Positions 9,401 through 58,929 of a stretch of 64,000 nt of DNA are shown piece by piece; the stretch's first letter is position 1, and each line of letters opens with the position of its first letter. The stretch is from Chiloscyllium plagiosum (lineage: Eukaryota). Under the pieces are notes generated by a model. It was given only the letters and a program-made list of their open reading frames with translations. It was not told where the DNA came from and made no database searches. The stretch spans positions 26,125,523 to 26,189,522 of the forward strand of contig NC_057746.1 in assembly GCF_004010195.1 (NCBI RefSeq). The letters are read 5' to 3'. The position numbers and the translations under genes were made by a program.

Positions 9401-12400
9401 CAGACGCTGTGGTGGATTTGAATCTATGTTGTCAGAACATGTGCTCAGGCCTCAGGATGACTAGGGATGGGCACAGCAATTCAGACAGCATCCGAGGACA
9501 GGCAAAATCGACGTTTCGGGCAAAAGCCCTTCATCAGGAAGGGCTTTTGCCCGAAACGTCGATTTTGCCTGTCCTCGGATGCTGCCTGAATTGCTGTGCT
9601 CTTCCAGCACCACTGATCCAGAATCTGGTTTCCAGCATCTGCATTGTTTTTACCTCAGGATGACTACACCAGTGACTTCACTACCACTCTACTGTCTACA
9701 TTGGGATGAGGAACAAGTGGAATTAAGTTCAGATGTATATTTCAGATTTATCAGCTGCTACGGTGGAAGTTGACCTCATAATCCAGAGGCATTAGCTTGG
9801 ACCTCCCCAGCGATGTTGCCCTTGTGCCACCATCACCACCTGCTGCCATTTACAGAGATTTTGTTCCGCCCCCGAACGCAAAGGTTCACTTACGATCCGA
9901 TCATTGATGACTGTAGTCAACGCACTCTGCTCTCCTCGTAGACTGTAGAGGTTCAGCGCTAAGCACTCAAACAGAGCCTGATTACACAGCTCCAGAAGTC
10001 GGTGACCAAAACTAGCGTCTGTGGGAAGAGAGAGACATCAGAGAGGACACAAAGCCAGGTCAGGTGTGACAAAGAGGGCAAGAGCAAACAAACGAAGGAG
10101 TCACTGAACGAGCAAAGAGTTTCTCTCCTGCTCCCTGACAGCTCAGTGGGTCAAATCCAACGGTATTGGCTGATCTCAACCAACTGGCCTCAGAAACCCC
10201 TGCAGTTTGCAGGCGTGAGGAAAACTTTACGGGATTTCTGCCCCCATTAATCATCCCTGGACTTCCAAGGAACCGGCAGTTGCATCACCCTGGGGAGGAT
10301 GAGATGAGGTTTGTGAATCGGGTGAAACAATCGCGCAGACCCCAACCCACACTCGACCGACAATCCCGGAGCGACTCAAGCTCCTGTGTGAACTGAAGGC
10401 CAGCAGAAAGCTAGTGTAGTGGAGAGGAAGGAGCAAGAGATGGAAGTAGAGAAGGGTCAGCAAAAGAGAACAAATAAACAAGGACAGCAGCAAGACAAGC
10501 ACACAGTACCCGTGCACTGGAGAATGTGTGTAGCAATCCGATTGAACTGCTCCCTCAAGAATTCCAAATTTGTACTGGTGATGTCTACTTCATCTCGCAC
10601 AACCACAGACGCCTCGAGAGAAAACAAACAACATTAGCAAGCAGCACCGCTTTATATCAGGCAATTTATTACCATCAAAATCAGCTCTCTATCAGGCCCC
10701 AGGCAATTCATAGAACATAAAACATTACAGCGCAGTACAGGCCCTTCGGCCCTCGATGTTGCGCCAACCTGTGGAACCAATCTGAAGCCTATCTGTCCTA
10801 CACGATTCCATGCTCATCCATATGCCTATCCAATGGCCATTTAAATGCCCTTAAAGTTAGTGAGTCTATTACTGTTGCAGGCAGTGTGTCCCACGCCCCT
10901 ACTACTCTCTGAGTAAAGAACCTACCTCTGACATCTTTCTATATCTATCAACCCTCAATTTAAAGCTATGCCCCCTCATGATAGCCATCACTATCCGAGG
11001 AGAAAGGCTCTCACTGTCCACTCAATCTAACCCTCTGATTATCTTAAATGTCTCAATTAAGTCACACCTCAATTTTCTTCTCTCTAACAAAAACAGCCTC
11101 AAGTCCCTCAGTCTTTTTTCCATACCAGGTAACATAGAAGTAAATCTCCTCTGAATCCTTTCCAAATCTTCCACATCCTTCCTATAATGCAGTGACCAGA
11201 ACTGTACGTAATACTCCAAGTGTGGCCACACCAGAGTTTTGTACAGCTGCAGCATGACCTCGTGGTTCCAAAACTCAATCCCTCTACTAATAAAAGCTAA
11301 CACACAGTATGCCTTCTTAACAACCCTATCAACCTGGGTGGCAACTTTCAGGGATCTATGTGCACGGACACAGAAATCCCTCTACTCATCTACATGACCA
11401 AGAATCTTACCACTAACCCAGTATTGCTATTGCTCCTTCCAAGTGAAACGTCTCACACTTTTCCACATTAAACTCCATTCGCCACCTCTCAGCCCAGCTC
11501 TGCGGCTTATCTATATTGCTCTGTAAACTACAACATCCTTCAGCACCACCACAACTGTACCGCCTTTAGTGTCATCTGCAAATTTACTAACCCATCCTGC
11601 TACGCCCTCATCCAGGTCACTTATGAAAATGACAAACAGCAGTGGCCCCAAAACAGACCCTTGCAGTACACCACTAGTAACTGAACTCCAGGATGAACGT
11701 TTCCCATCAACCACCACTGTCTTCTTTCTTTTTTCATAAAGGGTGAGGACAGTTGGAATGCACCCCAGGCCAGGGCATCTCTCTCGTGTCTGCTTCCACT
11801 CTGCTCTGTACCAGCTCAGCACCAACTGCTGGGCATGCAACTTGCTGCCAACTGCCTCATTCCCATTACAGAAGCAAAGCTTTAACAGCCCGAGAGCTCA
11901 GGATGCCAGTTTGCTCACTGAGCTGGAAGGGTTGTTTTCAGACGGTTCCTCACCATGCTCGGTAACATTATCAGTGAGCCTCTGGTGAAGCGCTGGTGTT
12001 ATGTCCCACTTTATACATGTGTGTCGTGGTCTCAGAAAGCAGGACGTAACACCAGCGCTTCACCAGAGGCTCACTGATGACGTTAACTAGCATTGTGGCA
12101 AAATGTCTGAAAACAAACCTTCCAGCTCAGCGAGCAAACTTGCAACCTGAACCTCAACCTCAGCTACAAACCTGCAAGCCTCAAGAGCCGCGGATGGACC
12201 GAAGACCTGGGACAACGACTCATGAGCACTGGTCTGAAGGAGATCACATTTCTTGTTGGCATGGCAAGGTGGTACAGGACCAGAGGGGAATCTACGGCTA
12301 TCTTATGACAAGTCCAGTTATGATCGGGAAATAGTCAGAGAACAAAGAAAATTTACAACCCAGGAACAGGCCCTTCGGCCCTCCAAGCCTGAGCCGATCT

Positions 12401-15400
12401 AAATGCACTTTCTAAACCTGTCACCCAATTCTTAAGCATCAGTATCCCTCTGCTCCCCACCTACTCATGCATCTGTCCAGATTCATTTTAAATGAATCTA
12501 CTGTGCCTGCCGCTACCACCTCTGCTGGCAATGCGTTCCAGAGCCCACCACCCTCCGTGTGAAGTACTTGCCGCGTGTATCCCCCTCAAACATTTCACCT
12601 CTCGCCTCGAAAGCGTGACCTTTCGTTATTGAATCTTTCACCCTGGGAAAAAGCTTATCTTTATCTACCTGTCTATATGCTTCATATGAAAACAAACCTA
12701 ACCTACTCAACCTCTTTTCATAACTAGCACCTTCCATACCAGGCAACATCCTCATAAACCTTCTCTGCACCCTCTCCAAAGTGTCCACTTCCTTTTGGTA
12801 ATATGGCGACCAGAACTGTACATAGTATTCGATATGTGGCCGAACCAACGTCATGTACAATTTTAACATGACTTGCCAGCTCTTATACTCAATACCCCGT
12901 CTGATGAAAGCAAGCATATTATATGCATTCTTGACCACACTATTCATCTGTGCAGCAACCTTCAGGGTACAATGGACCTGAACTCCCAGATCTCTCTGCT
13001 CATCAACTTTTCCCAAGGCTCTTCCGTTTACTGTATAATTCGCTCTAGAGGTGGCACCAGCCAATGTCTATGACCCTCAGGAGCCAAACACAGCCAGATC
13101 ACGCATCCTTGAGCCTCCCTTGTCTGTGCTAAGCAGAATTGTAATAACTTCACTGATTGTCCTGTGTTGTGGCTTGGCAGGGGTTAATAAGCGGCAGCTT
13201 TGGTGACCAAGTTTGAAACTGAAGTTGGCAGAACCTGCCATCCAGTTGGAAGCAGGTGTCCCAGAGATGTTTGAAGGAGATGACAGACCATGTGGCAATT
13301 CCATACACTCAGCCGAACTGAGAGGCAAGAAACTACAGTGCGTCCGTAAAGTCACTGGCCTGCTTTGGTAAGTATTATGTTGTAAGTTTAGTGAGTTATC
13401 TCGCCAGTTATTTCCTGTGGCCCTACTGGTTCAAGTCCCAAGCAAACACACAGATACTGAGTGGGAGTTTAAACTGCAGGCTCAATGTTACCATGACGAT
13501 CTGGAACACATTCGCCTGGAATTGTGGGACAGGATCATATAGTGCAGAGCAGAAAATTACCCCACCCTACCATCGCATCATGCCAAGGAGTTTACAGCAC
13601 ACTTACAAAACTTTCTTGGATGTACTCCTCTAGACCATTTATCAAGACGTCTGTTGATGCCTAGAATGAAAGGAACATGCATTTGGGTATCGTCTGATGT
13701 TAAAGGTCTGAAATCAATTCCAGCACAAACCAGAGTAACCATCTTAATCCATCACACTGTGTCGTCACCTCAGCCTGCTAATCATTGCTTCTGTGAAAAA
13801 TAGTTTTGCCGCTATTGGTTGCTGCAGTGCACAAACCAATATAAAGCCAAAACTCACTGTGTAACAGATGAACACAGCAAAGGCTCATAGATCTGGGCCT
13901 GGAAGCAACCTGGTTAGATCAGCCCTGGTCAAATACCGTATTGAACAACTGAGCCGGGGTTAGCGAGAAGGAAAGGAGGGCGAGAGAGGTGGGAGAGGAA
14001 AGGGGAGCATGGGGACAAGGAGAGATCTTGGCGATAGAGCGAGTGGAAAAGTCAGTTGGGATAAAAACGAAGGTGCGAGTGAGAGAGATGCATAGCGGGA
14101 GGGAGGGAGGGACAGGTAAAGAAACAGGCAGAGCGGTGTGTCTCTGCTTACCCGGATGTTCTGCTCTGTTGGCTCCTGGTTGTTGAGGTACTGCTCCCGG
14201 AAAAAGCGGTTGAGCTGAGGTTGGATCCGTTGCAGGGGCTGGAACTGGCCGTGCAGCAACATGATCATATCCACCATGGAGAAGTTCTGGCAAATCAGGG
14301 ACAGCAGGTCTCCGAAGAATCCTGCGAGGGACAAGAACGGCAGCTCAAGACGTGAAGGCTGGGCAAGAGGCGTGGAGGCGGGATAGAACATTTACATCAG
14401 AAACTGGGGGGTGGGGCAGTTCACCAGGAAACGCCAAGTGAACAAACGAGACAGAAATCAAGGAGATACTTTCTCAAAGGCAAACACTGAAGGGGGTGAT
14501 GCAAATTTGGTAAACACAGCAAGCGTACCGTTGTCATTCCCAGAAAGCCTTGACTTTTAAAAAAATAAAAAGCACAACAACAAAGTCATAAGACACATAA
14601 CACGCCAAAAAGCATGTTCACATTCGGAACCCTGTCTATGGCATCCTGTTCCTCCAGGGGAGGAAAGCTTTGAAGCCCAGAGAGCCGTGCATTCAGGGTG
14701 ACCGGACGACAAACCCTCCACTCCGTTTGTCAAACCCGAACGCGGGAAGAGGGGCCAACGCACCGAGAGCGCCGTCTGCTCCCGGCTCGAAGATGTTGCT
14801 GGTGCCGCTCAGCCGCTGGATGAAGTCAGCGATGCTCTCGGTGCTGCCCTGCTGTGCGTTGAGCGAGCCCATCATGGAGGAGAGCACCCCCTGCACCACG
14901 CTGGTGAAGAACTCCGGAGTCAGGGTGTCCGCTCCCGCCTGCTGCTGCTGTCTGCCACCGGCCCGGTCCTGACTCGGCTGCGGCTGCGATGGTGGAGGAG
15001 GGGGGGCAGCGGGAGCCCCCTGAGCCGTCGGCTGGGAGGCTGCCGGGGCCGCCTGGGGAACCGTCACAGCTCCCTGCGCCGCCTGAGGAAGAAGGGAAGA
15101 GACGGTGAAGCCGAGTGAGTGGCTGACCCGAGGGACAAGCAGTTCTGTCCAGCGAGCCATTGACCCCCTGGGGCCCTTACACCACACAGTCACAGAGATG
15201 TACAGCATGGATACAGACCCTTCGGTCCATCTCATCCATGCCAACCAGATATACTAACTTAATCTCGTCCCATTTGCCAGCACTTGGCCCATATCCCTCC
15301 AAACCCTTCATAATCATATACCCATCCAGATGCCTTTTAAATGCTTTAATTGTACCAGCCTCCACCACTTCCTCTGATAGCTCATTCCACACACGTACAA

Positions 15401-18400
15401 CCCTCTGTGTGAAAACGTTGCCCCTTCGGTCTCTTTTATATCTTTCCCCTCTCACCCTAAACCTATGCCCTCTAGTTCTGGACTTCCCCCACCCCTATCC
15501 ATGCCCCTCATGATTTTATAAACCTCTAATAAGGTCACACCTCAGCTTCTGATGGTCCAGGGAAAATAGCCCCCACCTATTCAGCCACTCCCTATAGCTC
15601 AACTCTTGGCTAGGGACAGTAGGCGCGAGATTGGACAGGGGACGCAAAATGAGAGGGATCGCTTCTATCACACATCCGAGAGTCAAACAAATCTGCATAC
15701 ATGGTCCAGGTGTATAAATGGCAAGCGCTTTTCAACTGCATCACCCTGTCCAGAGGAAGCTCACTACCAGACAATTCCTGGGATGCCTTTTGGAGGACAG
15801 CACAAGCCCGTGCCTTTAATCACTGGAGTTTAGGGGACGGACAGAAACAAAGGTGATTTGGAGAGAACGTTACCTCTCACAGGGGCATCTAGAAACAGAC
15901 TGGACACAGCTTGAAATGGGGAGGGGGGGGGAAAAAAGAGGGAGAGAAGGAGGAGGAATTTCTTCTGAGGGTTGTCAGCCTTTGGATCTCCCTGGCTGTT
16001 GACACAGCGGAGCCTGGGACACTCAACAGACTCAAGGCTGAGGCATGGAGCTTTTGGATGGGCGATAGTGTCAAGGTTTATAAGAAACAGGAGCAGGAGC
16101 AGGCCATTCGGCCCCTCGAGCCTGCTCCGCCACTCCACAAGACCGTGGCTGATGCTTCTACGCAGATTCAGCTCCACTTACCACCCCTTAATCCCTTTTA
16201 CTGTTCAAAAATCTACCTTTGCCTTAAAAACATTCAACAAACTGCCTCAACGGTTTCACTGGGCAGGGAATTCCACAGATTCAAAACTCTTTGGGTGAAG
16301 AATTTCCTCCTCAGCTCAGTATGAAATGTGCTCCACCTTATTTTGAGGCTATGTCCCCAGTTCTAGTTTCAACCCCCAGTGGAAACAATCTTCCTGCTTC
16401 TCTTATCTGTTCCCTTCATAATTTTACACGTCTCTGCAAGATTTCCCCCCACCGTTCTTTGAAATTGCTACGAGCATAGTTCCAGGCTACTCAATCCCGG
16501 CTCATGAGCCATATCCGGAATCAACCCAGTGAACCCCCTCTGCGCCCTCTCCAGTGCCAGTAGATCCCTTCTCAAGTGTGGAGACTGAGACTGTACACAG
16601 TACTGCAGGGTGAGGGGCCACATTGACAGCAGTCACCGAATGGCAGAATTGGCTCCATGGGCCAGATGGCCTACTCTCACATCCTTGTGCAAAGTAAAAA
16701 TCTGCGCGCGCTGCAGCCCTGAAATAGACAGGAACAGAAACTCAGCATGGCCGGCAGCATCACTGGAGAGAAAGCAGGGTTAACGTTTCAAGTCCGGCGG
16801 GATTCCTCTTCTCTCCCGCAGATGCTGCCAGAATCTGTTGAGTTTCTCCGGCAACTTCGGTTTCCGTGCCTGCTTTGGGTGCTCAATGCCCAGTTTTGAC
16901 CGACACAGGGAAAAATAGTCAGCAATGGGTTTGCTGGTAAGGGCTTAGAGGGTCGCTGTTCACGCAGCAAATTTAGCTCCAGTTTTAAGTCGGTCACGTC
17001 TTAATGGTTCTGGGTATCTGGACTCTTTGAGAGACAGGGAGGACAGACTTGAACCACAGGCAACAGGCTCCACGGTTCACTCCTTGGGTGTGCTGTTGCT
17101 GCAGCAGTGAAACAAATTATACAGCACAGGAGGCTCTCTGGACTCAAAGGATTTGGGACAATGGCAGGAAAGTTGGGATGAGTGCGCTTTTGGTGGTAGC
17201 TGCATCAGTGTCTTTTCTGCGCCGTACGAACGCGATTCCTCTGCCTCACACTGGCTCTCTGCAAAACATAGCGAACGCTCCCAAACTCCACACCCACCTG
17301 CCCACGGTCCTCTCCCTTTCCCAGGACCACGCTCCCCGGTACAACTGTGACTCCCTGCAAACCATAATGAACAATCCCAAACTCCATACCCACCACCACC
17401 ACCGCCGCCCTCCGGCCCGCTGCTCCTCTCCCTTTTCCATCACCACGCTCCCCCTCATATGACTGTGACTCTCTGCTTGCGCTGGTTCTCTGCAAAACAC
17501 AGCGAACAATTCCAAACTCCACGCCCACCGCTGCCCTCCGGCCTCCACCCCGCTCCTTTCCCCCCTGGACTGCGATCCAGTCACCCTTACCCGCGAGAGA
17601 GTGACGGCCTCACCTGCAGGAACTCGGTCATGCCCTGGACAAAAGCCGGCATCCCCGGCAAGGTGACAGTGATGGTCGGCGAGCCCACGCCGCCGGCGCC
17701 CGCCGCCCCCAGCAGGTTGCCGAGGAGCTGCGAGAACTGGACATCGGGAGGGGCAGGGTGCTGCTGCTGCTGCTGGCCACCACCGTCCGCTGTGGCTGAG
17801 GCGGTGGTCCCGGTCGAGTTGGTGGTGGAGGTGGGGGCTTGGCCGGCCGTGGCTGACGTGGTGGTGGACGAGGCGGCCGTGGTGCTGGTGCCGGTAGCTG
17901 CCGAGGAGCCGCTGTCACTGGTCGGGGGCTGGGCTGCAAGAAACAGACGGCAGAGGAGGTGGGGCGGGGGGAGGAGGAGAGGGGGTGGGAGAGCATGAAA
18001 CCACCCGGCAAACCCTTCGGAGTGTTGAAGAAATGCGACAGGGAAAGGGCAGGATAGGTCTTTTGTGTCTGTCTCACCGGCTAGTCTCTGAACCCTCGCA
18101 ATCCCGGGGAGAATGGATTTAATGACCTGCGTGTCCTCCAACCATCGGAGAGAACATCAGAGTCATAGAGATGTACAGCACAGAAACCGATCCTTTGGTC
18201 CAACCCGTCCATGCCAACCAGATATCCTAACCTAATCTAGTCCCACCTGCCAGCACCCGGCCCATATCCCTCCAAACCATTCCTATCCCTCCATATACCC
18301 ATGCTGATACCTTTTAAATATTGCAATTGTACCAGCCTCCACCACTTCCTCTGGCAGCTCATACATGTACCCCCTCAGTGAAAAGGTTGCCCCTTAGATC

Positions 18401-21400
18401 CCTCTTATATCTTTCCCCCCCTTCACCCTAAACCTATGCCCTTTAGTTCCAGACTCCCCCATCCCACGAAAATTACTTTGTCTATTTATCGTATACATGC
18501 CCCTCAATTTTGAGAGAGATAGGGTCTCGGGAGCCAATTTGTCTTTTCAAGACCACAGAGAGTTTACTGAAGTGCCCCACGCCTGTCACAGCCTTCATCC
18601 GGCGGAAGACAACCGCGGAGGGACTGGTAGGCGATGCCCGAGTGGTATTCTCAATGGATCCAGGTCATGCTCAGGCTTGAATCCCGCCACGGCAGATGGT
18701 GGAATTTGTTTATTCAGGGAGGGAAGTTGCCATCTTTACTTCGTCTGGCCAATATGTGACTCCGGACCCGCAGCAATATGGTTGACTCTCGGCTGATCAC
18801 CAGGCGATTATAAATGGGCAATAAATACTGGGACACTCTCATCCCATGAATGATTTTTTTAAAAAAACTTCCTAACACGTCAGTTCAGAAGCAGACATCA
18901 GCCTCAGACTGAAAAATTGCTTTAACCCCTCCTTTCGGGATAATAACCACTCCCACCTGACTGCCAGCACAGAATCGGTAGCTCCTTAATAAATGACTTT
19001 GAAAGCACCAGTACTCAAGCATTTGGTTAAGCTGCAAACGCCAAACCCTACTCTTAGAGAGTCAGTCAGTCAGAGACAGGGAGACATCACTAAATCCTGC
19101 AGAATGAGCTCACAAATCGACCTGTCTTGCCAAGATCCAGCATCTCTCATGGCTTACGTGATCACACAAAACACCACACGGTGTAGAATTCACAGGCCAT
19201 TCATCCCGACAGGTTCGTGCTAGCCTTTTATCTCAGTGTCTTCGCCAGGCCCTGTCAACATACCCACTCTGCGGCATTTCCACAGAGGCCACCCAGCTAC
19301 TTGCTCTTGTGCTGTGTTCAGTCAGGGATGTTACAAAGGGGAGGAAGCACTGTTACAGCGGCAACATCGAGCTGAACGCTTCATCTGAAGGGCAGCACGT
19401 TCAGTGATGCCGTTTCCTCTCAGAACCGCACCGAAACACAGAGCTCAGCTCCAGAGGGTGGGAGTGTACCGACAGACTTACTGGAGCTGACACCTGGATT
19501 GTGAAGTGACAGTAAAGAGCGGAGAGCGCAGAGCAAAAAGGGGCACCATGAGCCAGTCAGACACTTACCAAAGACGACGGGCTGCATCAGAAGTTGCCCT
19601 ACCAGTCCGGTGATCATCTGAGCAAGAGTGGCAGGACCGGGGGTGGGACCGGGACCAGGGCCGGGGCCAGTGCCAGGATCAGGGGCAGGGGTAGAGCCAG
19701 GAGGAACCTGGAGTGAAAAGAGCAGGCACAGAAAATGAACTGCACGCTTACAAAGAAGGCACTTGAACTACAAAAGTAAACTTAAACATAGCCATGCCCG
19801 GAGCTGCTTATTTGAGCAGCAAACAGTCCTGGGAACACTGGGCAGCACAGTGGCTGCCTCACAGCACCAGGGTCCCAGGTTCGATTCCAACCTCGGGCGA
19901 CTGTCTGTGTGGAGTTTGCACATTCTCCCAGCGTCTGTGTGGGTTTCCTCCGGGTGCTCCGGTTTCCTCCCACAGTCCAAAGATGTGCAAGACAGGTGAA
20001 TTGGCCATGCTAAATTGCCCATAGTGTTAGGTGCATTAGTCAGAGGGAAATGGGTCTGGGTGGGTTACTCTTCGGAGGATCGGTGTGGACTGGTTGGGCC
20101 GAAGGGTCTGTTTCCACACTGTAAGGATGTCTAATCTAATCTAATCTAAAATCCTCTCAGCTCGGACACCATCTTGTATGCTTTCACAGCCTGCCAGCTG
20201 TTTCCCCACTCCTTACACCTGAGGCTTGACAGAGGTTGCTGCACAGCACCACAGCAAGTGAGGTAAGAGTGCAAGAATGTCACTGTGACCCACGATATTA
20301 TATGAAATTTGACACCAGCCCCGAAAGTCCTTTTATTTTGCTACATCCTCAATAAAACAAAATGGTTTAATAGGTGTACAGTTCTGGTCGCTCTGCTATA
20401 GGAAGGATACTATTAGATTGGAGAAGGCGCAGAATAGATTTACAAGGATGTTACTGAGACTGGAGTCTTTGAGTTAGAGAGAGGGGCTGGATAGGCTTTT
20501 TTACCCAGGAGCGCAGGGAGACTGAGGGCTGACCTTGTAGAGGACCATAAAATCATGAGGGGCATGAATAACGTGAATTTCATGGTCTTTTCTCTTGGGA
20601 AGGGGAATTCAAAACTGGAGGGCATATTCTTAGGATGAAAGGACTAAGATTTAAGAAAAAAGAGACCTGAGGGGCAACTTTTTCACAGAGAGGATAGCTC
20701 GCATGTGGAATGAGTTGCCAGAGGAAGTGGTAGGTGCAGGCACAGTTACAACATTTAAAAGACATTTGGACAGGTACATGAATAGGAAAGGTTTAGAGGG
20801 ATACGCATGCAAGGGGGGGCCTCGTTTGGTTTGGGAAACTTGATCCGCATGGACTAGTTGGACTGAAGTGCCTGTGTGCCTCTATCCGCAGTAACAGAGT
20901 GATTTTACCACATCCCTCATACTGCGATCTATCTCTCATGAGTTACCTGTGGGCCAGGTTGTGGTCCTGATGCTGACTGGGTCTGCCGTGGGGGAGGGGG
21001 TGGAGGCCGGGTAATCACCACTCGGGCAGGTGAAGGCTGAAACCCAGGAACCTGCTGCCCTGCTGGAGAAGGGGCAGAAGAAAAGATGGAATGAAACACT
21101 GAGAGAAGAACATGTACGCTGCCTCACGTGTAACACTGATCACCTTCAGAAAAGCTTCTCAAATGGTAACCTCTCCCAGCCCCACTCCACCCTGGTCTGC
21201 AATCAGATTAGGCCACCAGTCGGCTGTGCCTGCCACATAAGCTACTGTCAAACGCTCGTGGAATTAAAGAATAAAAAATTATCAGGAAGTAATTAATTCA
21301 TTATATGGAACTGGGACCAACTTCCTTTTACAGGACTGCCTTATGTGGGTCAGTTCTTGCTGACACTGAAATAAAGCCAAAAACGCTGGAAACTCTCAGC

Positions 21401-45400: not shown

Positions 45401-48400
45401 AATGCCAGGAACGCCACAACTGACACCATGTCGTTGCCTTGTACAGACTGATCACATCCTTGCTTTCATGTTTAATATCGCCAACCATAAAGCCTAATTG
45501 CCCGTTCAAAAATGTTCACAGCTACGCTTTTAAGAACCTGTGCGGATGCACCCCATTTCTCTATTCAATTAATAATTGAACAAGGTTTAGCACACAGACC
45601 TATCATTCTGATGTTTTTCACAAAAATGTTATCCTTTTCATTTGTCCATTCTGAACCTCATTTGTTTGATACTTGCTCACTGGACAAACACGTTCCGGCA
45701 ACATCAATTCTCCTTCTGGCTGATCTAGCTTCTAAGCTCATCAGACCATAATACCATTCCTTTTACGTCTCTTCAAATAGAGAGCTCAACACACATCTTT
45801 GGAAGCTACACTTTGCCAATCCAAGAACTCTCTCATCTTCCCTACTCATGACCCTCTACCCAATCCTCTCACCCACGCTATTTTTTTTTTAAACCACACG
45901 TGCCTCAACACACTCCTCAGAGCTGATTCTCGCAGTGGACACTTCACTCATTTTGTTTCACTGAACTCCCAACGGCAACGCCCCTGCATCGATAAAGGGC
46001 GGCATGTCAAACGGTATTTCCCGAAACAGAAGCGTGCTCCTCACCTCCAGCCTGTTCAAGATCCCCTGAATGTCTCTCAGCATATGCTGTGCCAGTACCA
46101 GGCGAACTCTCGGCTCACTCTGTGAAAACAGAAAAGACAAGTTCCATCAGTGAAGAATGCCCTGGTGCACCTGAAACCCCACGTCAGCGGGGCCTAGATT
46201 CTCTGCTGACACATCTTGCCACCAGTACAGAATGATGCTGTACTATTGCACCTGGGGTTCAGTGTACTCTAACCAAATTCTCCATAAGCACAAGACCAAA
46301 CAGAGTTCTGATCACCGTAGCACAGTAGATTGATTTTCGTCTTACTCATTAAGTATTCAAAGAACGAGAGAAGCTGTGGCCCACCAGCTGAAAGATAAGC
46401 CAGTCCTGATTTCAAGGCAACAAACCCCAGCATTGCTGCTGAATAAAAATGGTTCACTGACAGTTCGTCATTCCACGCTCCTCTGGTTACAAACCAATTC
46501 CAACTGAAAGCACCACAGAGAAAAGCTCCCACTCCGAGACAATGAGGCTGACTCGGTGACATAGCCATGAGGGAAGCGAGATCACACACGTGAAATGGTT
46601 GTCGCCAGAATACTCTGGTCTAGACTCAGCCCATTCCCTGAGCACATCAGTGATGTCTGTGAATCTCGGCAAAGACAAAGGTGGACAGAGTGCGTTTGCA
46701 GAGACAAACTGGCCAGAGCTGTGCCGTGGGTACCCAAGTAGAAATGGCTACTGGTGCTGATCCATTTGCAAGTTTGCCTCCCAGAGTGAAAGGAGAAAGG
46801 TTCCCATTTGTTGGTAAAAGGTCGTGTTGGTTTTTCTTTGGGGGCAGGAGTTTGTGGAGGGAGGCATGCAGTCATTGGGATGAAAATGCATTGTTACACC
46901 AAATGCATAATAACAACAGCCTGCATAAAACTGTGGGGGAAACTAGTACAGTGTCAGGATCACCAATCAACCCAATTACTTAAGAATTACAGCAGAGACA
47001 GACCATTTGACCCTGTGTTTAGTTGCTTATTTAAGTACTACATGAACCACCATCCTACTTCTTCTCACCTGTGGAACCTCACGTACGTATTCTTCTACCC
47101 CTTCTGTGCTACTGGCCCCGTGCACTCCTTGCGGTAGTAATTTCCATGTCTTAATCACTCTGTGGGTAAAGTTGCTTCTCCATCTCGTATTTCTAGTTCT
47201 AAACTTCCCCCACAAGAGCAAGTACATCTGCTTTATCAAACACTTGCGTATTTTAACTGTGTCAGTCAGGTCACACTTTAACTTTCCCCGAACTTCCTTA
47301 AATGGTCATAACTTGCCACATCTGGTACCATCCTGCAAAGCTTTTGTGCACCTTGTCTAATGCCTCCATCATTACTGAGGAGTGGCCAAATAATGTTGCT
47401 GCTTCTCACCAGGCCTCTTGTATCTCTTTCAAATGGACAAACACACAACGTCCTCCTACTCCACATTAATTTAATTATACAATATTATGTAATGGTTCTA
47501 CAATGAAATTAGCCATGGCATTGGAGGGCACTGAGTATTTTCTCCGTCCTGAAGTGTGCAAGACACAAGACAGAGACAATAGCAGCAAATTGCACCTCAT
47601 CCTCCAAGGAAAGGCCAGCCATTCCTCCACAGATTCTGGGCTTGCCTCACTACCGCCTACCAGACAGGTTGTACTCATCTTCCTGCTAATGTAAGAATGG
47701 GCAAGGTTACAGAGGAAACCAGGGCTCGCTTGCACTCTTTCCCTCTCTCTGTACAACTCGGGCGAGAAGGGAATCAGATGAAAGATCGCAAGCCCCAGAA
47801 TCATGTGTTGGTAGTCAGAGGTGACACGACCTCTCTGTCCAGTGGAATTATAAAAAGGTAGAAACACACCAGCCCGCAAATGACAATTAGCAGAACGACT
47901 GACACACAAACCTAGCTGTCATGAGAAAGCAACGCTTCAGTCAAGGGGAGGCAATGGCTCAGTGGTATTGTTGCTAGACTTGTCATCCAGAGACACAGGT
48001 AAAGTTATGGGGTGTCAGTTTCAAATCCCACTGAGCAAATTCAACAAAAGCCTCAAATGAAAAATCTAATGATGATCATAAAATCATTGTTGATTGTTGT
48101 TAAGAAAAACCCAATCTGATTCACTAAAGTCTTTTAGGGAAGGAAACTATCCAGCCTGGTCGACATGTGACTCATGATCCACAGCAACGTGGCTGACTCT
48201 CACCGCCCAAAGCCCCCCCCACCCCACTGAAATGTCCTAGCAAGCCACTCAGTTGTATCCAGGGGATGACTTGCCAGCCCATATCCACCAGTGAATTAAA
48301 CGAGAAGTTACTTACAACCGACAATTCTAAGTAACACCCAAATTCAACTGTGGTTTCTCTCCTCTCCTTCAATGTCATATTGTTCTCCTCTCAAATGGCA

Positions 48401-49862
48401 CTATTCTGCTCTAATGCATAGCTCCCTCAAGTGCTTCCCTACAAAGTTTGTCATGCGTCAGCAGACCTTGCAAAGCTATCCAAAAAAATCTGATGCGCAC
48501 CTGCACACATGTTTTTGAGCGAGATAGAACGAAAAGCAGAACGCAATCAGACAGTGATGTTGGTCCCTTTCCTCCTCGCTAACCCAGAAGCATCAAGATA
48601 ACTGTTGCTTACCTACCCAAACTCAACTCAAAGCAAATACTGTCTACCTGTATGTGAATCCAACATCTTGGGGAAGTCGGCAAGGCCACCAGATTTCTGT
48701 AGCATCCCTGCTGGCTTGTTAACACATTGTATTGCTGCATACCTCAAGTATGTTTCTGCAAAAATACCTTTCCATCATGGAGAGAGTAACATTGCCCTTC
48801 AGAAGGCACAAAAGTGTGTTTTTTTTTGAGAGAGTATTATCTGAAAGAGTAAATTAAGTGACTTCCAGAGGAAATATTTGAGTTCCACTTGCACCAAATA
48901 TTAAGCACCCCAGAATCCCACACTTCTTTTAAAAAGCTTAATAAAGTACCAAAGACTTGTTTATATAGCACTTTTCACAAGTTCACGACTTCACAGAGTG
49001 CTTTGCAGCCAATTAAGAACACTTCAAGTATAGTCACCACCGAAAAGCAAGAAACATGACAGCTGATTTGTGCACAACATCACACAAACAGCAGTGAAAT
49101 CAAGTCTAGTTCACCTATCTTGTTCTTAAGTGATAATTTTAGGGAGAGAAATCTTGATCAGAACCTTGGTTTGATGTCCGAGCTTCTCATAGTTCACACT
49201 GCCTCATGCTTTTAGGCTAGACACTTGTTAGAATTTCCTCCCATAATTCAGAAGACTTATAAAGAACAAAGTAATTTCCGAAGGGGAGCAGGAGAAAAAT
49301 ATTCAGAGTAACCTCAATATTAGTGATAGATGTGCCAATGAGGTGCACAAATATGACAAGTGCAGGTTTGTAACTACAATATATTCCAGATTAGACACAC
49401 AATGAAAGTACCTGAAGCACTCAACTCAAAACATATTGATCAGCGTCCATGTTAAGTTGCTGGAAATGCACAAGGCAAGGCGCAGCCACAGCACAAATGA
49501 TTTCAACGTTAAATACATGGTGAAGGATTTCTGTTTCCAGACCCCTCAGCAAATCATTGCCCAAACTGATTCTCCACCCCATTTCCTTTAGAGAACAGCA
49601 GCCAGGGAATGACATACATGCCTACTGAGCTCAGTTACATTTTGCTGCACTGTACTATCTCTAAGAATTGTACATCCTCAGCCTACATGCTAACTACAAA
49701 CATGGATGAATAAGGCAGAAGCAGCATGGGTCAATGGTGGGATTAACAAGATGGGGAAAAGACACAGTGAAACATAGAGGGCAAAGAAAAGACAGAACAC
49801 AAAGTTACCTGGATGGGACTCTGTTCCACATTGATGTGCACATCCATCGACGATCCATCACT
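354..49862 (-). CDS. BAG6: BAG6 (BAT3/Scythe), 5'-partial spliced CDS, 22 exons equivalent to human exons 5-25 including 11B
   Basis: Manual splicing gives a continuous 3216-nt frame with BAG6 hallmarks ([73 protein letters not shown]). All donors are GT, all acceptors AG, and phases agree. The N-terminal UBL exons were not found in the window. Confidence 0.97.
817..1433 (+). mobile_element. CR1-type LINE 3' fragment
   Basis: [15 protein letters not shown]...[20 protein letters not shown] and ctctatgact tail. Confidence 0.9.
1470..1780 (+). mobile_element. Old tRNA-derived SINE; related copies near 18630-18860 and 47945-48300
   Basis: Shared aaatcccac...gaatttgaatt...ctggttcact...gggaaggaaa...gtgactc blocks. 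Confidence 0.55.
2386..2532 (-). CDS. BAG6: BAG6 exon 24-equivalent (147 nt) [11 protein letters not shown]...QEAYRQQ (BAG-similar domain)
   Basis: cag acceptor, gtaaaa donor, phase 0-0. Confidence 0.96.
4433..4540 (-). CDS. BAG6: BAG6 exon 23-equivalent (108 nt) [36 protein letters not shown] (NLS / GET4-TRC35-binding region)
   Basis: cag acceptor, gtaatg donor; near-identical to human. Confidence 0.97.
4575..5075. repeat. Degenerate minisatellite, about 40-60 bp units with core ctgacccactgccc...cagtgcca(a)agggg
   Basis: About 11 recognisable copies in the intron between exons 22 and 23. Confidence 0.75.
5545..5685 (-). CDS. BAG6: BAG6 exon 22-equivalent (141 nt) [19 protein letters not shown]...EPWVAAVPP
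   Basis: cag acceptor, gtgagt donor; human ASPAPGTTAEEAMS...EPWAAAVPP. Confidence 0.95.
6152..6667 (-). mobile_element. CR1-type LINE 3' fragment
   Basis: Reverse complement of the same family as 817-1433 and 40838-42038. Confidence 0.88.
7353..7421 (-). CDS. BAG6: BAG6 exon 21-equivalent (69 nt) [23 protein letters not shown]
   Basis: cag acceptor, gtaaca donor, phase 0-0; acidic linker in the expected position, ends PQ like human; weak similarity. Confidence 0.82.
7455..7648 (-). mobile_element. HE1-like SINE 3' half
   Basis: cagtgtggaaacaggcccttcggccc tail plus partial core. Confidence 0.8.
7770..8002 (+). mobile_element. CR1-type LINE 3' end (other subfamily)
   Basis: gtatggaatgctctgccccagaaagctgtggaggcc ([12 protein letters not shown]) and gaatggcctactcctgc tail. 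Confidence 0.75.
8233..8397 (-). CDS. BAG6: BAG6 exon 20-equivalent (165 nt) [19 protein letters not shown]...PETQQ
   Basis: cag acceptor, gtaatc donor; conserved peptide. Confidence 0.96.
8670..9025 (+). mobile_element. CR1-type LINE 3' end with an internal 125-bp tandem duplication
   Basis: [12 protein letters not shown]-type sequence; units 8712-8836 and 8837-8959. Confidence 0.8.
9464..9652. mobile_element. Penelope-like fold-back relic with 14-bp TSD
   Basis: Arms 9471-9532 and 9538-9599; TSD cctcaggatgacta at 9450-9463 and 9653-9666; hammerhead core. Confidence 0.75.
9507..9540 (-). ncRNA. Hammerhead core with short stem I
   Basis: uuc CUGAUGA a GGGC-uuuu-GCCC GAAAC GUC^gau. Confidence 0.6.
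9894..10018 (-). CDS. BAG6: BAG6 exon 19-equivalent (125 nt) (D)[23 protein letters not shown]...INDRI
   Basis: cag acceptor, gtaagt donor; conserved peptide. Confidence 0.96.
10510..10612 (-). CDS. BAG6: BAG6 exon 18-equivalent (103 nt) [34 protein letters not shown]
   Basis: Rare gag acceptor, gtactg donor; human [26 protein letters not shown]. Confidence 0.93.
10710..11730 (-). mobile_element. CR1-type LINE, degenerate RT C-terminus
   Basis: [16 protein letters not shown]...SKFADDTK and [17 protein letters not shown]. Confidence 0.92.
11908..12172. mobile_element. Penelope-like fold-back relic with degenerate hammerheads
   Basis: Inverted arms about 11908-12006 and 12042-12140; same family as the 28360 and 34980 copies. 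Confidence 0.7.
12338..13050 (-). mobile_element. CR1-type LINE 3' fragment
   Basis: ORF 12513-13064 QRDLGVQVH...[17 protein letters not shown]. Confidence 0.92.
13607..13660 (-). CDS. BAG6: BAG6 exon 17-equivalent (54 nt) [18 protein letters not shown]
   Basis: tag acceptor, gtaagt donor; human MATHTLITGLEEYVRESF. Confidence 0.94.
14152..14321 (-). CDS. BAG6: BAG6 exon 16-equivalent (170 nt) (G)[17 protein letters not shown]...EQNIR
   Basis: cag acceptor, gtaagc donor; highly conserved peptide. Confidence 0.97.
14764..15082 (-). CDS. BAG6: BAG6 exon 15-equivalent (319 nt) AAQGAV...[15 protein letters not shown]...FEPGADGAL
   Basis: cag acceptor, gtgcgt donor, phase 1. Confidence 0.95.
15188..15605 (-). 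mobile_element. CR1-type LINE 3' fragment
   Basis: [21 protein letters not shown]. Confidence 0.9.
16080..16608 (-). mobile_element. CR1-type LINE 3' fragment (other subfamily)
   Basis: ggccattcggcccctcgagcctgctcc tail and gggaattccacagattc (LWNSLP on the minus strand). Confidence 0.75.
17250..17530. repeat. Three degenerate copies of ctctgcaaaaca..gcgaacaa.tccaaactcca.acccacc
   Basis: Copies near 17251, 17345 and 17482. Confidence 0.75.
17614..17933 (-). CDS. BAG6: BAG6 exon 14-equivalent (320 nt) ...[13 protein letters not shown]...[23 protein letters not shown]
   Basis: cag acceptor, gtgagg donor; conserved motifs after a T/S/A-rich stretch. Confidence 0.95.
18158..18510 (-). mobile_element. 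CR1-type LINE 3' fragment
   Basis: agagtcatagagatgtacagca tail shared with the 15188, 40838 and 53082 copies. Confidence 0.88.
19569..19707 (-). CDS. BAG6: BAG6 exon 13-equivalent (139 nt) [18 protein letters not shown]...[19 protein letters not shown]
   Basis: cag acceptor, gtaagt donor; [17 protein letters not shown] motif. Confidence 0.95.
19840..20147 (+). mobile_element. HE1-like V-SINE (tRNA-derived)
   Basis: B box ggttcgattcc, V-domain tgtgtggagtttgcacattctccc...cccacagtccaaaga, CR1-like tail with (tctaa)n. Confidence 0.9.
20372..20880 (+). mobile_element. CR1-type LINE 3' fragment
   Basis: gtgtacagttctggtc...tggaatgagttgccagaggaagtgg. Confidence 0.88.
20947..21059 (-). CDS. BAG6: BAG6 exon 12-equivalent (113 nt) (G)[19 protein letters not shown]...PGPQ
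   Basis: Tandem cagcag acceptor (alternative start 21062), gtaact donor; human GQQVPGFPTAPTRVVIARP. Confidence 0.93.
22052..22170 (-). mobile_element. Penelope-like terminal fragment of a second family (GAAAGCUA-type hammerhead, mutated)
   Basis: Minus strand CUGAUGA a GGAGC-ggc-GCUCC uAAAGCUA; shares caggttatag-ccaacaggttta with the 37870 copy. Confidence 0.6.
22690..24750 (+). mobile_element. Old CR1 remnant including the ORF1 esterase region and decayed ORF2
   Basis: Frameshifted [11 protein letters not shown]...IISGLLPE-like sequence typical of CR1 ORF1 SGNH esterase. Confidence 0.55.
25949..26053 (-). CDS. BAG6: BAG6 exon 11B-equivalent (105 nt) (G)[34 protein letters not shown]
   Basis: cag acceptor, gtatgg donor, phase 1-1; resembles the mammalian alternative exon 11B peptide (IQLPSLPPEFMHAVAHQITHQAM). 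Confidence 0.92.
26180..26360. mobile_element. Penelope-like fold-back relic with 15-bp TSD
   Basis: 52-nt arms 26255-26306 and 26308-26359 with one mismatch; TSD acttgaaatgaggta at 26165-26179 and 26361-26375. Confidence 0.8.
26271..26310 (-). ncRNA. Minimal type I hammerhead ribozyme motif, intact core
   Basis: Minus strand reads ggaauc CUGAAGA a GGGC-ucau-GCCC GAAAC GUC^gauucu: 6-bp stem I (one G-U), 4-bp stem II, palindromic ACGU stem III. Confidence 0.8.
26505..27012 (-). mobile_element. CR1-type LINE 3' fragment
   Basis: [25 protein letters not shown]. Confidence 0.9.
27236..27640. mobile_element. Penelope-like fold-back relic with ORF C-terminal remnant
   Basis: Inverted arms of about 200 nt; [11 protein letters not shown]-type peptide on the minus strand; hammerhead remnants in both arms. 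Confidence 0.7.
28358..28505 (+). mobile_element. Penelope-like terminal repeat fragment
   Basis: Shares ccttccagctcagcgagcaaac...cctcaacctgagctacaaa with the 12120 and 35110 copies. Confidence 0.7.
28378..28417 (+). ncRNA. Minimal type I hammerhead ribozyme motif, stem III mutated
   Basis: cca CUGAAGA u GUUGCC-uaguag-GGUGAC GAAAC UUC^ugg; stem I cca/ugg. Confidence 0.65.
30348..30410 (-). CDS. BAG6: BAG6 exon 11-equivalent (63 nt) (D)[20 protein letters not shown]
   Basis: tag acceptor with pyrimidine tract, ag|gtaagt donor, phase 1-1, open frame beginning DS as in human exon 11; similarity otherwise weak. Confidence 0.82.
31488..31737 (-). CDS. BAG6: BAG6 exon 10-equivalent (250 nt) INVGTTVTM...[24 protein letters not shown]
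   Basis: Tandem cagcag acceptor (alternative start 31740), gtatgg donor, phase 1. Confidence 0.94.
32134..32328 (-). CDS. BAG6: BAG6 exon 9-equivalent (195 nt) [11 protein letters not shown]...QQAVPIQ
   Basis: cag acceptor, gtgagt donor; highly conserved peptide. Confidence 0.97.
32740..32918. mobile_element. Older Penelope-like fold-back relic; related decayed copies near 16690-16870, 21380-21560, 24760-24940, 37260-37390 and 58160-58295
   Basis: tgctggaggaactcagcagg...gagttcctccagca inverted arms; remnants of tcatcag and gaaatgttaac. Confidence 0.55.
33965..34094 (-). CDS. BAG6: BAG6 exon 8-equivalent (130 nt) [11 protein letters not shown]...DYNNN
   Basis: cag acceptor, gtatgc donor; strong similarity to human HPSPAEYVEVLQELQRLE. 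Confidence 0.96.
34410..34835 (+). mobile_element. Old Deu-type SINE (SacSINE/AmnSINE-like); related copies near 57150-57590 (+) and 51190-51580 (-)
   Basis: tRNA-like head, gcagtactgaggaaatgctgcactg core, tctttcttt tail; family name inferred. Confidence 0.5.
34980..35178. mobile_element. Penelope-like fold-back relic
   Basis: Arms about 34980-35046 and 35064-35130, each with a hammerhead core. Confidence 0.75.
35062..35101 (+). ncRNA. Minimal type I hammerhead ribozyme motif
   Basis: uca CUGAUGA u GUUACC-uaguac-GGUGAC GAAAU GUC^uga; stem I uca/uga; a second core (CUGAAGA...GAAACGUC) lies on the minus strand at 35009-35048. Confidence 0.7.
36255..36500. repeat. Tandem duplication, 125/121 bp
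   Basis: Units 36255-36379 and 36380-36500; differ by a 4-bp indel and a substitution. Confidence 0.92.
36775..37076 (-). mobile_element. HE1-like V-SINE
   Basis: Reverse complement of the 19840 family. Confidence 0.9.
37868..38056. mobile_element. Penelope-like fold-back relic, second family
   Basis: Inverted arms around ccgatgaaggga-ctatgc-tccgaaagctt; imperfect 13-bp TSD catttaaaacaaa (37855-37867) / cattaaaaacaaa (38057-38069). Confidence 0.65.
38694..38881. mobile_element. Tc1/mariner-pogo (Tigger-like) MITE
   Basis: TA flanks; imperfect TIRs caggttgctctggtataatgcg / cgcgttatagcagaacgtactg. Confidence 0.65.
39987..40261 (-). CDS. BAG6: BAG6 exon 7-equivalent (275 nt) [13 protein letters not shown]...EEALPGP
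   Basis: cag acceptor, aa|gtaagt phase-2 donor that joins the next exon to give PN-HPSP as in human; low-complexity P/S/T/A. Confidence 0.9.
40838..42038 (-). mobile_element. Young 5'-truncated CR1-type LINE with an uninterrupted 322-codon RT C-terminal frame (40914-41882)
   Basis: [38 protein letters not shown]; no stops over 969 nt. Confidence 0.96.
42555..42847 (-). mobile_element. Penelope-like fragment with partial direct terminal repeat
   Basis: The aaagtgaggactgc-gatgct start recurs at about 42826; degenerate hammerhead at 42642-42681 on the minus strand. Confidence 0.65.
43814..44075 (-). mobile_element. HE1-like V-SINE (5' truncated)
   Basis: ggactgtgggaggaaaccggagcacccggaggaaaccc core. 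Confidence 0.88.
44500..44920 (+). mobile_element. CR1-type LINE 3' fragment, degenerate
   Basis: KIMRDMD...[20 protein letters not shown]. Confidence 0.75.
46045..46119 (-). CDS. BAG6: BAG6 exon 6-equivalent (75 nt) [25 protein letters not shown]
   Basis: cag acceptor, gtgagg donor; close match to the human peptide. Confidence 0.96.
49809..49862 (-). CDS. BAG6: BAG6 exon 5-equivalent (54 nt) [18 protein letters not shown]
   Basis: aag acceptor after a pyrimidine tract, gtaact donor; human SDGSAVDVHINMEQAPIQ. Confidence 0.93.
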
Positions 49863-55890: not shown

Positions 55891-56155
55891 ATAATAGGCT
55901 GAATGGTCTCCTGTGCTGCAAGATGCAAATGCAAGCCATGTGTGCGCTCCAGAGATGGCATATATCTCTGAAATTAAATTGATTTTTAAGGCTCACTCTC
56001 TTGCCAAATACAGCAAAATACCATAGTAGGATGAATGGTCTCCTGTGCTGCAAGATGCAAATGCAAGCCATGTGTGCGCTCCAGTGATGGCATATATCCC
56101 TGAAATTAAATTGATTTTTAAGGCTCACTCTCTTGCCAAATACAGCAAAATACCA
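55891..56155. repeat. Tandem duplication, 132 bp
   Basis: Units start at 55891 and 56023; a few substitutions. Confidence 0.92.
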
Positions 56156-56325
56156 AAGGACACTGCAGGCAACTGTACTACATCAGTGCACTGTACTTCA
56201 CATCTACTGACTCAATTCTTTGCACTGTTCAATTTCAGAATTTTGAGGGAATAGGTTTGCAAGCACCTGTGTTTCAAAACTGTCAAAGGAAGACTGACAT
56301 TAATCAAGGGTATTCAGATACTTTA

Positions 56326-56494
56326 AGGAGAAAGTGAGGACTGCAGATCAGAGCTGAAAATGTGTTGCTGGAAAAGCACAGCAGGTCAGGCAGCATCCAA
56401 GGAACAGGAGGATCGAAGGGCTTATGCCCGAAACGTCGATTCTCCTGCTCCTTGGATGCTGCCTGACCTTTTCCAGCAACACATTTTCAGCTCT
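56326..56494. mobile_element. Penelope-like fold-back relic with 15-bp TSD, centre deleted
   Basis: TSD tattcagatacttta at 56311-56325 and 56495-56509; same family as the 26180 copy; retains GGGC-ttat-GCCC GAAACGTC but not CTGANGA. Confidence 0.78.
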
Positions 56495-58929
56495 TATTCA
56501 GATACTTTACAAATGGATTCTTGAGAATGAATTATAGACTGGGTTTTAATAAAGGAATTTGCCTTACATATTGAGTAATGACTATCTGGCACAAATCTGC
56601 AGTCAAGAGTTCAGATAATACAAACAAGCAAACTTATGCCAAGTGCCGAGTTGTCGACTGTTAACAAGATTAAGATTCTGCCTTGAAATTGCTTCAGAAT
56701 GTCTCTCTCTCTCTCTCTCTGGCAAATGCAGAATGTGCAGATTGAGATCTTTTACTTTTGGCTGGATTCTATGCTGGCGGTAGCTGTTATTCTTGGCAAC
56801 CTTCTAATCCATTTAATGTGACACAGTGGCGCCGGGCCAGTTCACCTGGGGATTAACTGCAGTTAATTGAAAATTGTGTGGCCCCAATAAGAAGTGGGGA
56901 AAGTATGCAGGATGTATATCTTAAAATCTGCCGTCCATGGGTTCTCATCTCCCCACCTCTCCTTGTGAATCTGTTAGCTGGCTGCAGGATTAGTATTCTG
57001 TGATACTGATAGCTGACTCATAAGTAGTTGCAGACCCAGATCCCTTGCCTGTAACCACACGGCTCCCCCAGAATTGTACCCCAGAATCAATCAACTCACT
57101 CCCTTTAACCCCATCTAGAAGGGGGGCTCCCACACTAATAAAGGCATCAGCCATGCCCCAGTTGGTAGCACTCTTCCTCATGAATCACAAAGCTATGAGT
57201 TCGAGTCCCACTCAAAGGGCTGAGCTTGCATGACTGACGCTCCATTGCTGTCCTGCGCTGCACAGAGTTAAATGCAACCGTCTTTCTGGCCAAAGGTTAA
57301 ACCTGGGCCCCGATCAGCTGTTCTAATGGTGGTTTTTTAAAAAATCTCAGGACATTAATTTCAGCAAGAGCTGGGAGGTCTCCTTAGTCCCAGTCAATAT
57401 TTAACCCACTATCAACGTCACAAAATAAAATCAACCAACAATTATCACATGGCTGGTGGGAACTTCCTGTGCACAGAATGGCCATGAGATTTCACAACAA
57501 CTGTGACTACACCACATTGGCAGCAAAACATTTTGACAGGTCTAATAGTCAAAGTAAAATATTGCTTAAATACAAGCCTTTCTTTTACCTTTTCATAATT
57601 TGGTGCTTTATTACAAGGTCAATTTCCTATAGAGGCTAATAACCTACAAATTCTGGGGACAGGCTTTCCACTGATACTCATTCCAAGTCTACTAACTCCC
57701 ACAGTTACCTTAAATACACTTTCCCACATCTTGCTTCCTAATAAGAGTCTGTTCCACTTTCCCAGTTTCCCCACCACATCGGCCAGATTTCTTCCACTGG
57801 GGTTTCTAACGGGTTCTCCTTTTTACTCAAACAAAACTCCAACCCCATTTTTTTTCTTTTTTCACAGCTAACATTTACACCGGTCTTACAAATGAACTCC
57901 TCGTACAGCCAGAGAAGTCTACAGCACAGAAAAATGGCCCTGAAGCCTATCAACTCTGCAATGGTCAAAAACAAACACCTAATTGCCCGAATCCCATCTT
58001 CTGGCACTTGGACCATTTCCTTGACTGTCTTGGCGTGGCATCCTCCCTGACCTCCAGTGTCACAGCCTTTGCCTTTGGCACTGGGCACTTCAGAATCTGT
58101 TATTGCTGTTCCTCCCCTTTAGTCCACAGTATTAAAAACTACAATTTTCCACCTCCTTTTAGTTCAGAAGTCGTCATCCTGGAGTCGAAACTTTAACTCT
58201 TACATTTCTCTTCACAGATGCTGCCAGACCTGCTGAGTTCCTCCAGCACATTTTATTTGATTTATGGCTTCCAGCATCTGCAATATTTTGCTTTTATCCC
58301 TAAAATATCTTGCTGATTCATCCAAAATGGGCATCAAAGCTATCTTTCTTCATACAGCTCACTGCACATGTTTGGTGAAAAAGTGTTATCCTATTACTCC
58401 CATGTACTGGCTCTTTTTCCATTTCCCTGCAAACACTTCCCATTCAAACATACTGTCAAAAAGTCTTTAGAATTTTGCTATTCAATCTGCTTCTACCCTC
58501 CTTTCAGGCACCTTATTTCAGGTTGTAAACAAATACAAAAGAAAAAGTCTTCATTTCATGGCTGGTTCTATTTTTTAAATTCATTTTATTTTATCATAAA
58601 CAACAATGGCAAGGCAAGCATTTGTTGCTCATCCATAACTACACTCAAGAAAATGGTGGTGAGCCATCCTCCTGAATTACTACAGCTCGTGTGTTGGGAA
58701 TGAACACAGTAAAGAAATGGCCATTGTGTCCTCTGGTTACCAACCCTCTTGTCATTATTATTCTTATTGTGGGGGTGGGGCTCCATATTATCACAGTTCA
58801 AATTGCCTGTGAAGCACTTTGGTATAACCCTCAGCTCTGTGCAAGTCTCTTTTCACGTTGCTTATTTGACCAAACCCTTCATGATTTTGAACACCTCTGT
58901 TACATGCCCCCAAAGCTATTTTCAACAGC

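Follow-up and report, generated by a model that had tools for sequence, protein, structure and literature searches.

The introns of the BAG6 gene in Chiloscyllium plagiosum harbour many short elements with hammerhead ribozyme motifs, mostly decayed, which raises the question of how such elements are made and whether their ribozymes act in the host transcript. The stretch analysed here, referred to as the window, comprises the 64,000 nt of contig NC_057746.1 from position 26,125,523 to 26,189,522. The ten elements previously named in it (at 9464, 11908, 22052, 26180, 27236, 28358, 34980, 37868, 42555 and 56326) were all recovered at the positions claimed by a motif scan and a repeat search of these 64 kb. 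Their location in BAG6 introns was also borne out. The minus-strand host gene was identified as BAG6 (Pfam BAG6, E 1.1e-26; Bag6_BAGS, E 6.8e-21), all ten elements lie between its exons, and since the ubiquitin-like and first coding exons sit past the right end of the window all ten are intronic. Three sequence groups were found, as proposed: A (9464, 26180, 42555 and 56326), B (11908, 27236, 28358 and 34980) and C (22052 and 37868). These elements are probably one-off insertions from autonomous Penelope-like elements (PLEs), likely made by a reverse transcriptase (RT) that is primed within the mRNA, at about 55-100 nt beyond the hammerhead, and runs off a capped 5' end, likely a few bases before the ribozyme core. 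Positions such as -32 or +98 are offsets from the predicted hammerhead cleavage site, and the core starts at -28 in A, -29 in C and -34 in B.

The suspected Penelope-like origin was supported by longer natural copies elsewhere in the genome, in which the same hammerheads are immediately preceded by RT and GIY-YIG endonuclease frames. In these longer copies, and not within the window stubs, GIY-YIG scores above the Pfam cutoff; the RT carries an RYIDD motif and in one copy (L034) matches RVT_1 with an E value of 3.4e-5, which is under the cutoff. A zinc-finger-like Cys linker is present as CHRRNCKTC in A and in a form like CHGRRCKTC in C, and the endonuclease frame of family B is without it. 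A peptide upstream of a family A hammerhead has 72,971 first-look candidates in the genome, of which 150 were scored. In the longer family A copies, one of which has the RT in another frame, the frame with linker and GIY-YIG stops about 215 nt short of the core. At the other side the tail of the arms continues into the 5' end of the open reading frame (ORF): among 11 matches, five copies have the hammerhead followed by this continuation, three of which begin at about -31, -32 and -35 and two further upstream. The hammerhead thus lies in a pseudo-long terminal repeat (pLTR) that runs into the ORF start, a feature of endonuclease-bearing (EN+) PLEs. Judged from these frames, the window elements are ends of autonomous PLEs, two families being of Neptune type (A and C) and one of Poseidon type (B); these clade names rest on the RT-endonuclease linker as defined in the available text of PMC8557442. 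Frames of 890-2,242 aa were rejected as giant ORFs, being runs of N. Long PLE copies (L071-L080) are broken by such runs, so that full-length elements are likely under-represented in the assembly.

The elements were described as mostly inverted repeats, and seven of the ten are indeed head-to-head fold-backs (9464, 11908, 26180, 27236, 34980, 37868 and 56326), the single arms being 22052, 28358 and 42555. Clear target duplications of 14-15 bp surround 9464, 26180 and 56326. The structure was followed in a sample of 1,164,121 bases from 11 other blocks picked by coordinate, which held 313 arms (9.5-41.4 per 100 kb in each block). Sixty-eight compact head-to-head pairs and no tail-to-tail pair were found among them. 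In 56 of the 68 a tailed arm (+93 to +100) is paired with a short one (+54 to +64), the remainder being three long-long pairs, one short-short pair and eight with a cut arm; the 3' ends fall at two sites about 35-40 nt apart. Target duplications of at least 8 nt flank 33 of the 63 scorable pairs, compared with 2.5% when flanks were shuffled. The joins mostly show an overlap or filler of -4 to +6 nt. In the tailed/short pairs the arm that reaches further 5' is the short one in 29, the tailed one in 17 and neither in 10, and both arms reach the core start in 16 of the 68 pairs, several of them with loops of 0-3 nt. Moreover 65 distinct junctions were counted among the 68 fold-backs. They are therefore one-off products, and the idea of a non-autonomous family of miniature inverted-repeat transposable elements (MITEs) spreading as units was not supported: a single short master with a shared centre was not found, nor were head-to-tail tandem units each with a hammerhead, as expected of retrozymes, the window elements being inverted or single. 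What was found are the marks of EN+ PLEs, namely a tail of 30-40 bp on one end, an inverted 5'-truncated copy and a target duplication. As a separate observation, some fold-back junctions recur on a microhomology of the 5' edge of the core with stem II (e.g. L155:6016-6028), which accounts for about a quarter of the 100 matches listed at -31.

The 5' ends of the copies pile up just before the core rather than at the cleavage site, and those of two families carry an extra G; both observations are new. Ends were counted on 216 family A arms without N upstream (six of them were judged by eye to be long copies from older subfamilies and reassigned) and on 69 family C arms. In family A the rate was 5.1% per nt at -28 to -38 (70/125), 2.5% at -18 to -27 and 0.6% at -46 to -100 (15/44). 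A footprint of hammerhead cleavage was not found, the rate within 2 nt of the family A cleavage site being 0.6% per nt (6/193). Family C gave 5.1% per nt (20/36) against 0.3%. The peaks fall at -32 in subfamily A1 and at -37 in C; both letters are A, in a context that we take to be initiator-like. In 50 of the 68 pairs the arm that reaches further ends at -28 to -38, 12 of these at the edge of the reference. Genome matches of A1 with a foreign letter before -32 numbered 7,202 (about 9,600 given that the pattern also restricts a sixth letter) versus 22,503 with the native letter, and the foreign-letter matches at the neighbouring positions were 5,577 at -31 and 3,630 at -33. In public reads and contigs, from runs that contain less than half of the words of the window and may come from related species, the depth over a young A1 copy drops about 4-5-fold over -29 to -44, and the top listed 5' loose end was -32 in three of four runs, the fourth having no matching reads. 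The three runs with reads had nearly identical profiles, with reads on both strands, and among the sequencing runs listed as containing the sequence none is recorded as RNA. A splice acceptor at the boundary was rejected, the nearest AG lying 13-21 nt further upstream in A1 and A2. A circular RNA template was rejected too, as it would predict no boundary at -32.

The letters before the boundary were tallied by hand among the 100 matches listed per position. Before -32 the A1 matches listed had G57 A26 T17, compared with G17 T34 C49 before -31 (P 1e-6). When 31 rows that were junction-explained or point mutants were taken out of the -32 matches, G38 A17 T14 of 69 were left, and before -33 the matches listed gave G7 A14 C19 after removal of a subfamily variant and of the junction-explained rows. 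In family C the 100 matches listed before -37 (1,628 matches) had G73 A12 T15 and those before -35 (484 matches) G39 A28 T33 (P 2e-6); after exclusions 37 of 52 at -37 were G. The full set of P values for these tests was 1e-6, 8e-5, 8e-3 and 2e-6. An extra G is described as a mark of cap copying in full-length insertions of the L1 retrotransposon (PMC11702581). An RT that adds C at any RNA end would give the same G, so that the evidence points to the 5' end of an RNA, which is likely to be capped. Together with the pile-up of ends before the core, the extra G likely marks a capped transcription start.

The hammerheads themselves had been given the layout CUGANGA-N-stem II-GAAA-palindrome-NUH. 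This layout is intact in three of the ten elements, all on the minus strand and hence sense to BAG6; the other seven have an altered core or palindrome or, as in 56326, no CUGANGA. A strict descriptor that adds 2 bp of stem I was passed by two window elements and gave no match in 60 dinucleotide-matched random windows, and an Rfam scan of the window returned no hammerhead among 23 matches at E<=5, with only microRNA-like hairpins matched below the cutoff. In the sample 59 of 181 core-spanning arms were intact, the palindrome showing CpG decay. Beyond the window the minimal type I anatomy was upheld, and exact patterns confirmed a huge copy number: 54,589 matches for A, 1,616 for B (a narrow pattern) and 17,812 for C, in total 74,017 in the 3.56-Gb genome, with no match for the reversed control patterns. 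Scaled up from the sample, in which about 47 strict motifs occur per 1.16 Mb, the genome would hold about 140,000 such motifs and about 1 million arms. The density in BAG6, which had seemed notable, is ordinary: 14 arms in 64 kb are 21.9 per 100 kb as compared with 26.9 in the sample, and BAG6 is no hot spot for PLE arms. Stems II and III differ in sequence among the families while their pairing is kept. In 20 family B copies, 14 of them picked by a pattern that fixes stem II, 87% of the cells were paired and one pair had changed on both sides (CG 8, UA 8, GC 2). From these alignments the hammerheads of the parent elements look to be under selection.

The following course of events would account for the copies. 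The mRNA would start within the 5' strand of helix I and would contain two copies of the priming site, one close to its 5' end and the other behind the ORF. Reverse transcription from the first would end in run-off after 90-135 nt, and reverse transcription from the second would give long, randomly truncated copies. A dimer may extend both nicked strands from two adjacent start sites. A head-to-head join of the two cDNAs, with little microhomology and a target duplication, would then give a palindrome of 150-230 bp with a central ribozyme. The hammerheads would be passengers, with an antisense arm predicted to pair with the core in host pre-mRNA, and most cores have decayed. As far as the available text of PMC11167929 goes, this agrees with PAc, the Poseidon element of Anolis carolinensis, for which internal priming in vitro at two adjacent sites that bound the tail, extension of both strands and an uncleaved RNA template are described, with the hammerhead at the border of pLTR and ORF. 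The rarity of ends at the cleavage site is in line with that uncleaved template. Whether the genome preserves, in addition, a fossil record of the Penelope cycle, with a capped mRNA start at hammerhead helix I, a short run-off cDNA made by internal RT priming and two such cDNAs joined head to head from two start sites, we regard as an even question.

Several observations weigh against this course of events. No site where many molecules begin, and hence no start site, was seen in one RNA run. According to the available text of PMC2377424 and PMC4209133, transcription of Drosophila Penelope starts upstream of helix I, at a distance of 46 nt plus an intron of 75 nt. About 60% of the young A1 copies that reach -32 go past -34, and the peak spreads over -28 to -38. 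The A2/older group has no excess of G (G25 and A22 of 100 listed, 53 rows having the older native C; P 0.31), the control position of family C is itself 39% G among the 100 matches listed, and family B, with 22 arms, is too sparse for an analysis of ends. The tallies of the extra G were made by eye on the first 100 matches listed, from the first contigs, and the exclusions were subjective. Moreover no unbroken full-length ORF was seen among the long PLE frames, which contain runs of N.

The same dead-end insertions could also arise without a transcription start at the boundary, if the RT stalled at a folded or protein-bound hammerhead or if the endonuclease cut its own cDNA at ATT. The family A boundary is ATT, the motif that PAc cuts most (PMC11167929, available text), the rate of ends is already raised inside the hammerhead, and the absence of a G excess in A2 and of a start in the RNA would suit this account. 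Nevertheless an added G at a single position, seen in two families that are unrelated, is left unexplained by both stalling and self-cutting; in family C the boundary reads ACA, and two of the ORF-bearing copies also start at -32 and -35. We therefore consider it unlikely. Another alternative concerns the joining step only, and its likelihood overlaps with that of the favoured course of events: instead of two cDNAs being joined, a single cDNA, perhaps made from an antisense template, could fold on itself and be copied back, a route that has been proposed for Penelope in rotifers. The short junction loops, the recurrent microhomology junctions and the self-priming proposed in the available text of PMC3846280 all speak for such a snap-back. 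A simple snap-back on a sense template would however need the tailed arm always to reach further 5', which was seen in the minority of tailed/short pairs counted above; the pairs in which both arms arrive at the core start, several with almost no loop, do not fit either, and the extra G, lying at the 5' end of the sense strand, agrees with a template of sense orientation. Snap-back as the way of joining appears possible and still rather doubtful.

A further explanation treats the elements as MITE- or retrozyme-like non-autonomous units, transcribed and copied as whole palindromes by PLE enzymes. Their uniform small size, very high copy number and few recurring junctions could be read in this way, and PLE-derived non-autonomous retrozymes occur in vertebrates (bioRxiv 10.64898/2026.07.22.740005, available text). 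It is nevertheless quite improbable, since nearly all junctions are distinct and the recurring ones fall on microhomologies, the arms are inverted and not tandem, and single arms have the same 5' boundary. Very improbable indeed is the working ribozyme reservoir in pre-mRNA that was originally suggested, in which intronic hammerheads would cut the host transcript as dimers. In its favour are the three intact cores sense to BAG6, the abundance of strict motifs in the sample, a compensatory stem I change among B subfamilies and the domesticated intronic hammerheads reported in amniotes (PMC6155905, available text). Against it, seven of ten window cores are damaged, intact ones are a minority among sampled arms with CpG decay of the palindrome, and the second arm is antisense and not a dimer partner. 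The fold-back hairpins are predicted at -89 to -288 kcal/mol with the cores buried, the predicted cost of freeing the core being 13.9 kcal/mol (9464) and 23.7 kcal/mol (26180) compared with 1-5 in single arms. In vitro, monomers of minimal hammerheads show no activity and dimers only weak activity (PMC4209133), and the PAc hammerhead requires its protein (PMC11167929), according to the available text of both papers. In addition one RNA run showed no pile-up of read starts or ends anywhere, the cleavage site included; its reads came from both strands, and are thus not taken as expression of the element itself, and 96% of them continued into unrelated sequence. The stem covariation would reflect selection in the parent elements. 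On these folding predictions and reads, ribozyme activity in the host pre-mRNA is unsupported.

Comparison with known systems, based on the available text of the papers cited, places the elements close to EN+ PLEs of the Neptune and Penelope/Poseidon clades (PMC8557442, PMC3846280, PMC8969392), with which they share the RT with C-terminal GIY-YIG, the pLTR hammerhead and, in A and C, the zinc-finger-like linker, as well as 5' truncation, an adjacent inverted copy, a 30-40-bp tail on one arm and a short target duplication. They differ in that most copies here consist only of two inverted ends, and that text makes no mention of 5' ends that stop sharply at the hammerhead and bear an additional G. 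The ORF of PAc begins in stem II and here it begins after the tail; what is available of the PAc paper (PMC11167929) neither maps the transcript start nor explains short inverted copies. The minimal type I hammerheads of metazoan PLEs (PMC4209133) are alike in the extra nucleotide after CUGANGA, the palindromic 15.2-16.2, the several families per genome and the location of most copies outside full elements. That text counts about 4,000 in coelacanth and about 9,000 in Xenopus and does not mention sharks; at least 74,017 exact matches are present here. Non-LTR retrozymes (PMC7229834, bioRxiv 10.64898/2026.07.22.740005), which are also non-coding and PLE-derived with a type I hammerhead, are head-to-tail tandems that make circular RNA, whereas the copies described here occur singly or in head-to-head pairs, each with a junction of its own. 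One cartilaginous fish is among the genomes of the latter work.

In long terminal repeat (LTR) elements, minus-strand strong-stop DNA is primed near the RNA 5' end and runs off at the cap, which gives a short cDNA as is proposed here. In the present case there is no tRNA primer, and the product would be target-primed and end up integrated.

The notion that this reservoir is little described applies to the hammerheads of sharks only, since publications already exist on minimal hammerheads across genomes and on PLE copies that are inverted and 5'-truncated; PLE expansion within introns is known in the whale shark (bioRxiv 10.1101/443036, available text). In a literature search no publication was found that deals with the hammerheads of sharks, nor one that describes a capped start or a run-off product for PLEs, although Repbase, Dfam and subscription journals may contain these families. 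The available text of PMC3846280, PMC8557442 and PMC11167929 leaves open how inverted PLE copies come about, which of the strands serves as template and what role the hammerhead has. If the proposed course is true, the template would be settled as the sense, uncleaved transcript and hundreds of thousands of inverted stubs with a central ribozyme would be explained. Moreover the position-specific extra G would give a precise predicted start site that is testable in the published PAc system. As elements the copies are ordinary PLE debris, if very numerous, so that palindrome or microRNA-like calls in such genomes need PLE masking.

Table 1. Features of the window and their coordinates (whole-stretch numbering; cores are listed with their strand).
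Feature	Coordinates	Strand	Remarks
BAG6 exons framing the elements	392..49847	-	gene runs on past 64000
A2 fold-back	9450..9666		14-bp target duplication 9450-9463 / 9653-9666; intact minus core 9537-9510; plus arm begins within the core and bears the tail
B fold-back	11898..12173		arms 11898-12012 and 12036-12150; mutated cores, plus 12074-12107 and minus 11974-11942
C single arm with tail	22046..22168	-	core 22166-22138, GAAA altered
A1 fold-back (26179-26359)	26164..26374		15-bp target duplication; intact minus core 26304-26277; plus core 26310-26337 with broken stem II
Older B-type fold-back	27241..27628		148-nt arms and inner arms; mutated cores, minus 27307-27274 and plus 27562-27595
B single arm with tail	28349..28506	+	core 28381-28414, palindrome gone
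Old fold-back relic of a further family	32746..32900		related relics 37260-37309, 58150-58295, 16736-16853, 24759-24829
B fold-back	34968..35179		minus core 35045-35012 intact, stem I reduced to 1 bp by the junction; plus core 35065-35098, palindrome decayed
C-related fold-back	37863..38058		plus core 37939-37967, first core letters altered
A partial tandem, not a fold-back	42561..42870	-	core 42675-42648, palindrome decayed
A1 fold-back (56326-56497)	56311..56513		without CUGANGA; 15-bp target duplication
PLE RT-thumb coding relic, short	57652..57774	+	51% identity over 41 aa, E 4e-5

The partial tandem of family A is made up of part of the tail and about 140 nt from the ORF 5' region, followed by an arm that begins 33 nt before the cleavage site. 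In this copy and in two others (L009 and L191) the ORF 5' region is fused directly to pLTR or RT region, which suggests template jumps after run-off. The relics at 32746-32900, 37260-37309 and 58150-58295 appear to form a fourth, older family of hammerhead-bearing fold-backs and have part of the family A 3' region in common.

The window also contains 3' fragments of long interspersed nuclear elements (LINEs) at 40914-41897 on the minus strand, one with an open RT frame of 327 aa, and related copies at 817-1364, 6150-6728, 15185-15610, 18158-18506, 26477-27028, 53083-53694 and 62569-63272; from their peptide we take these fragments to be CR1-like. A small perfect hairpin lies within a LINE fragment at 1004-1070. 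In a BAG6 intron, seven degenerate 27-nt repeats are spaced by 38-142 nt at 4580-4997, and near-perfect local tandem duplications are found at 8712-8914 (125 nt) and 55890-56153 (132 nt).

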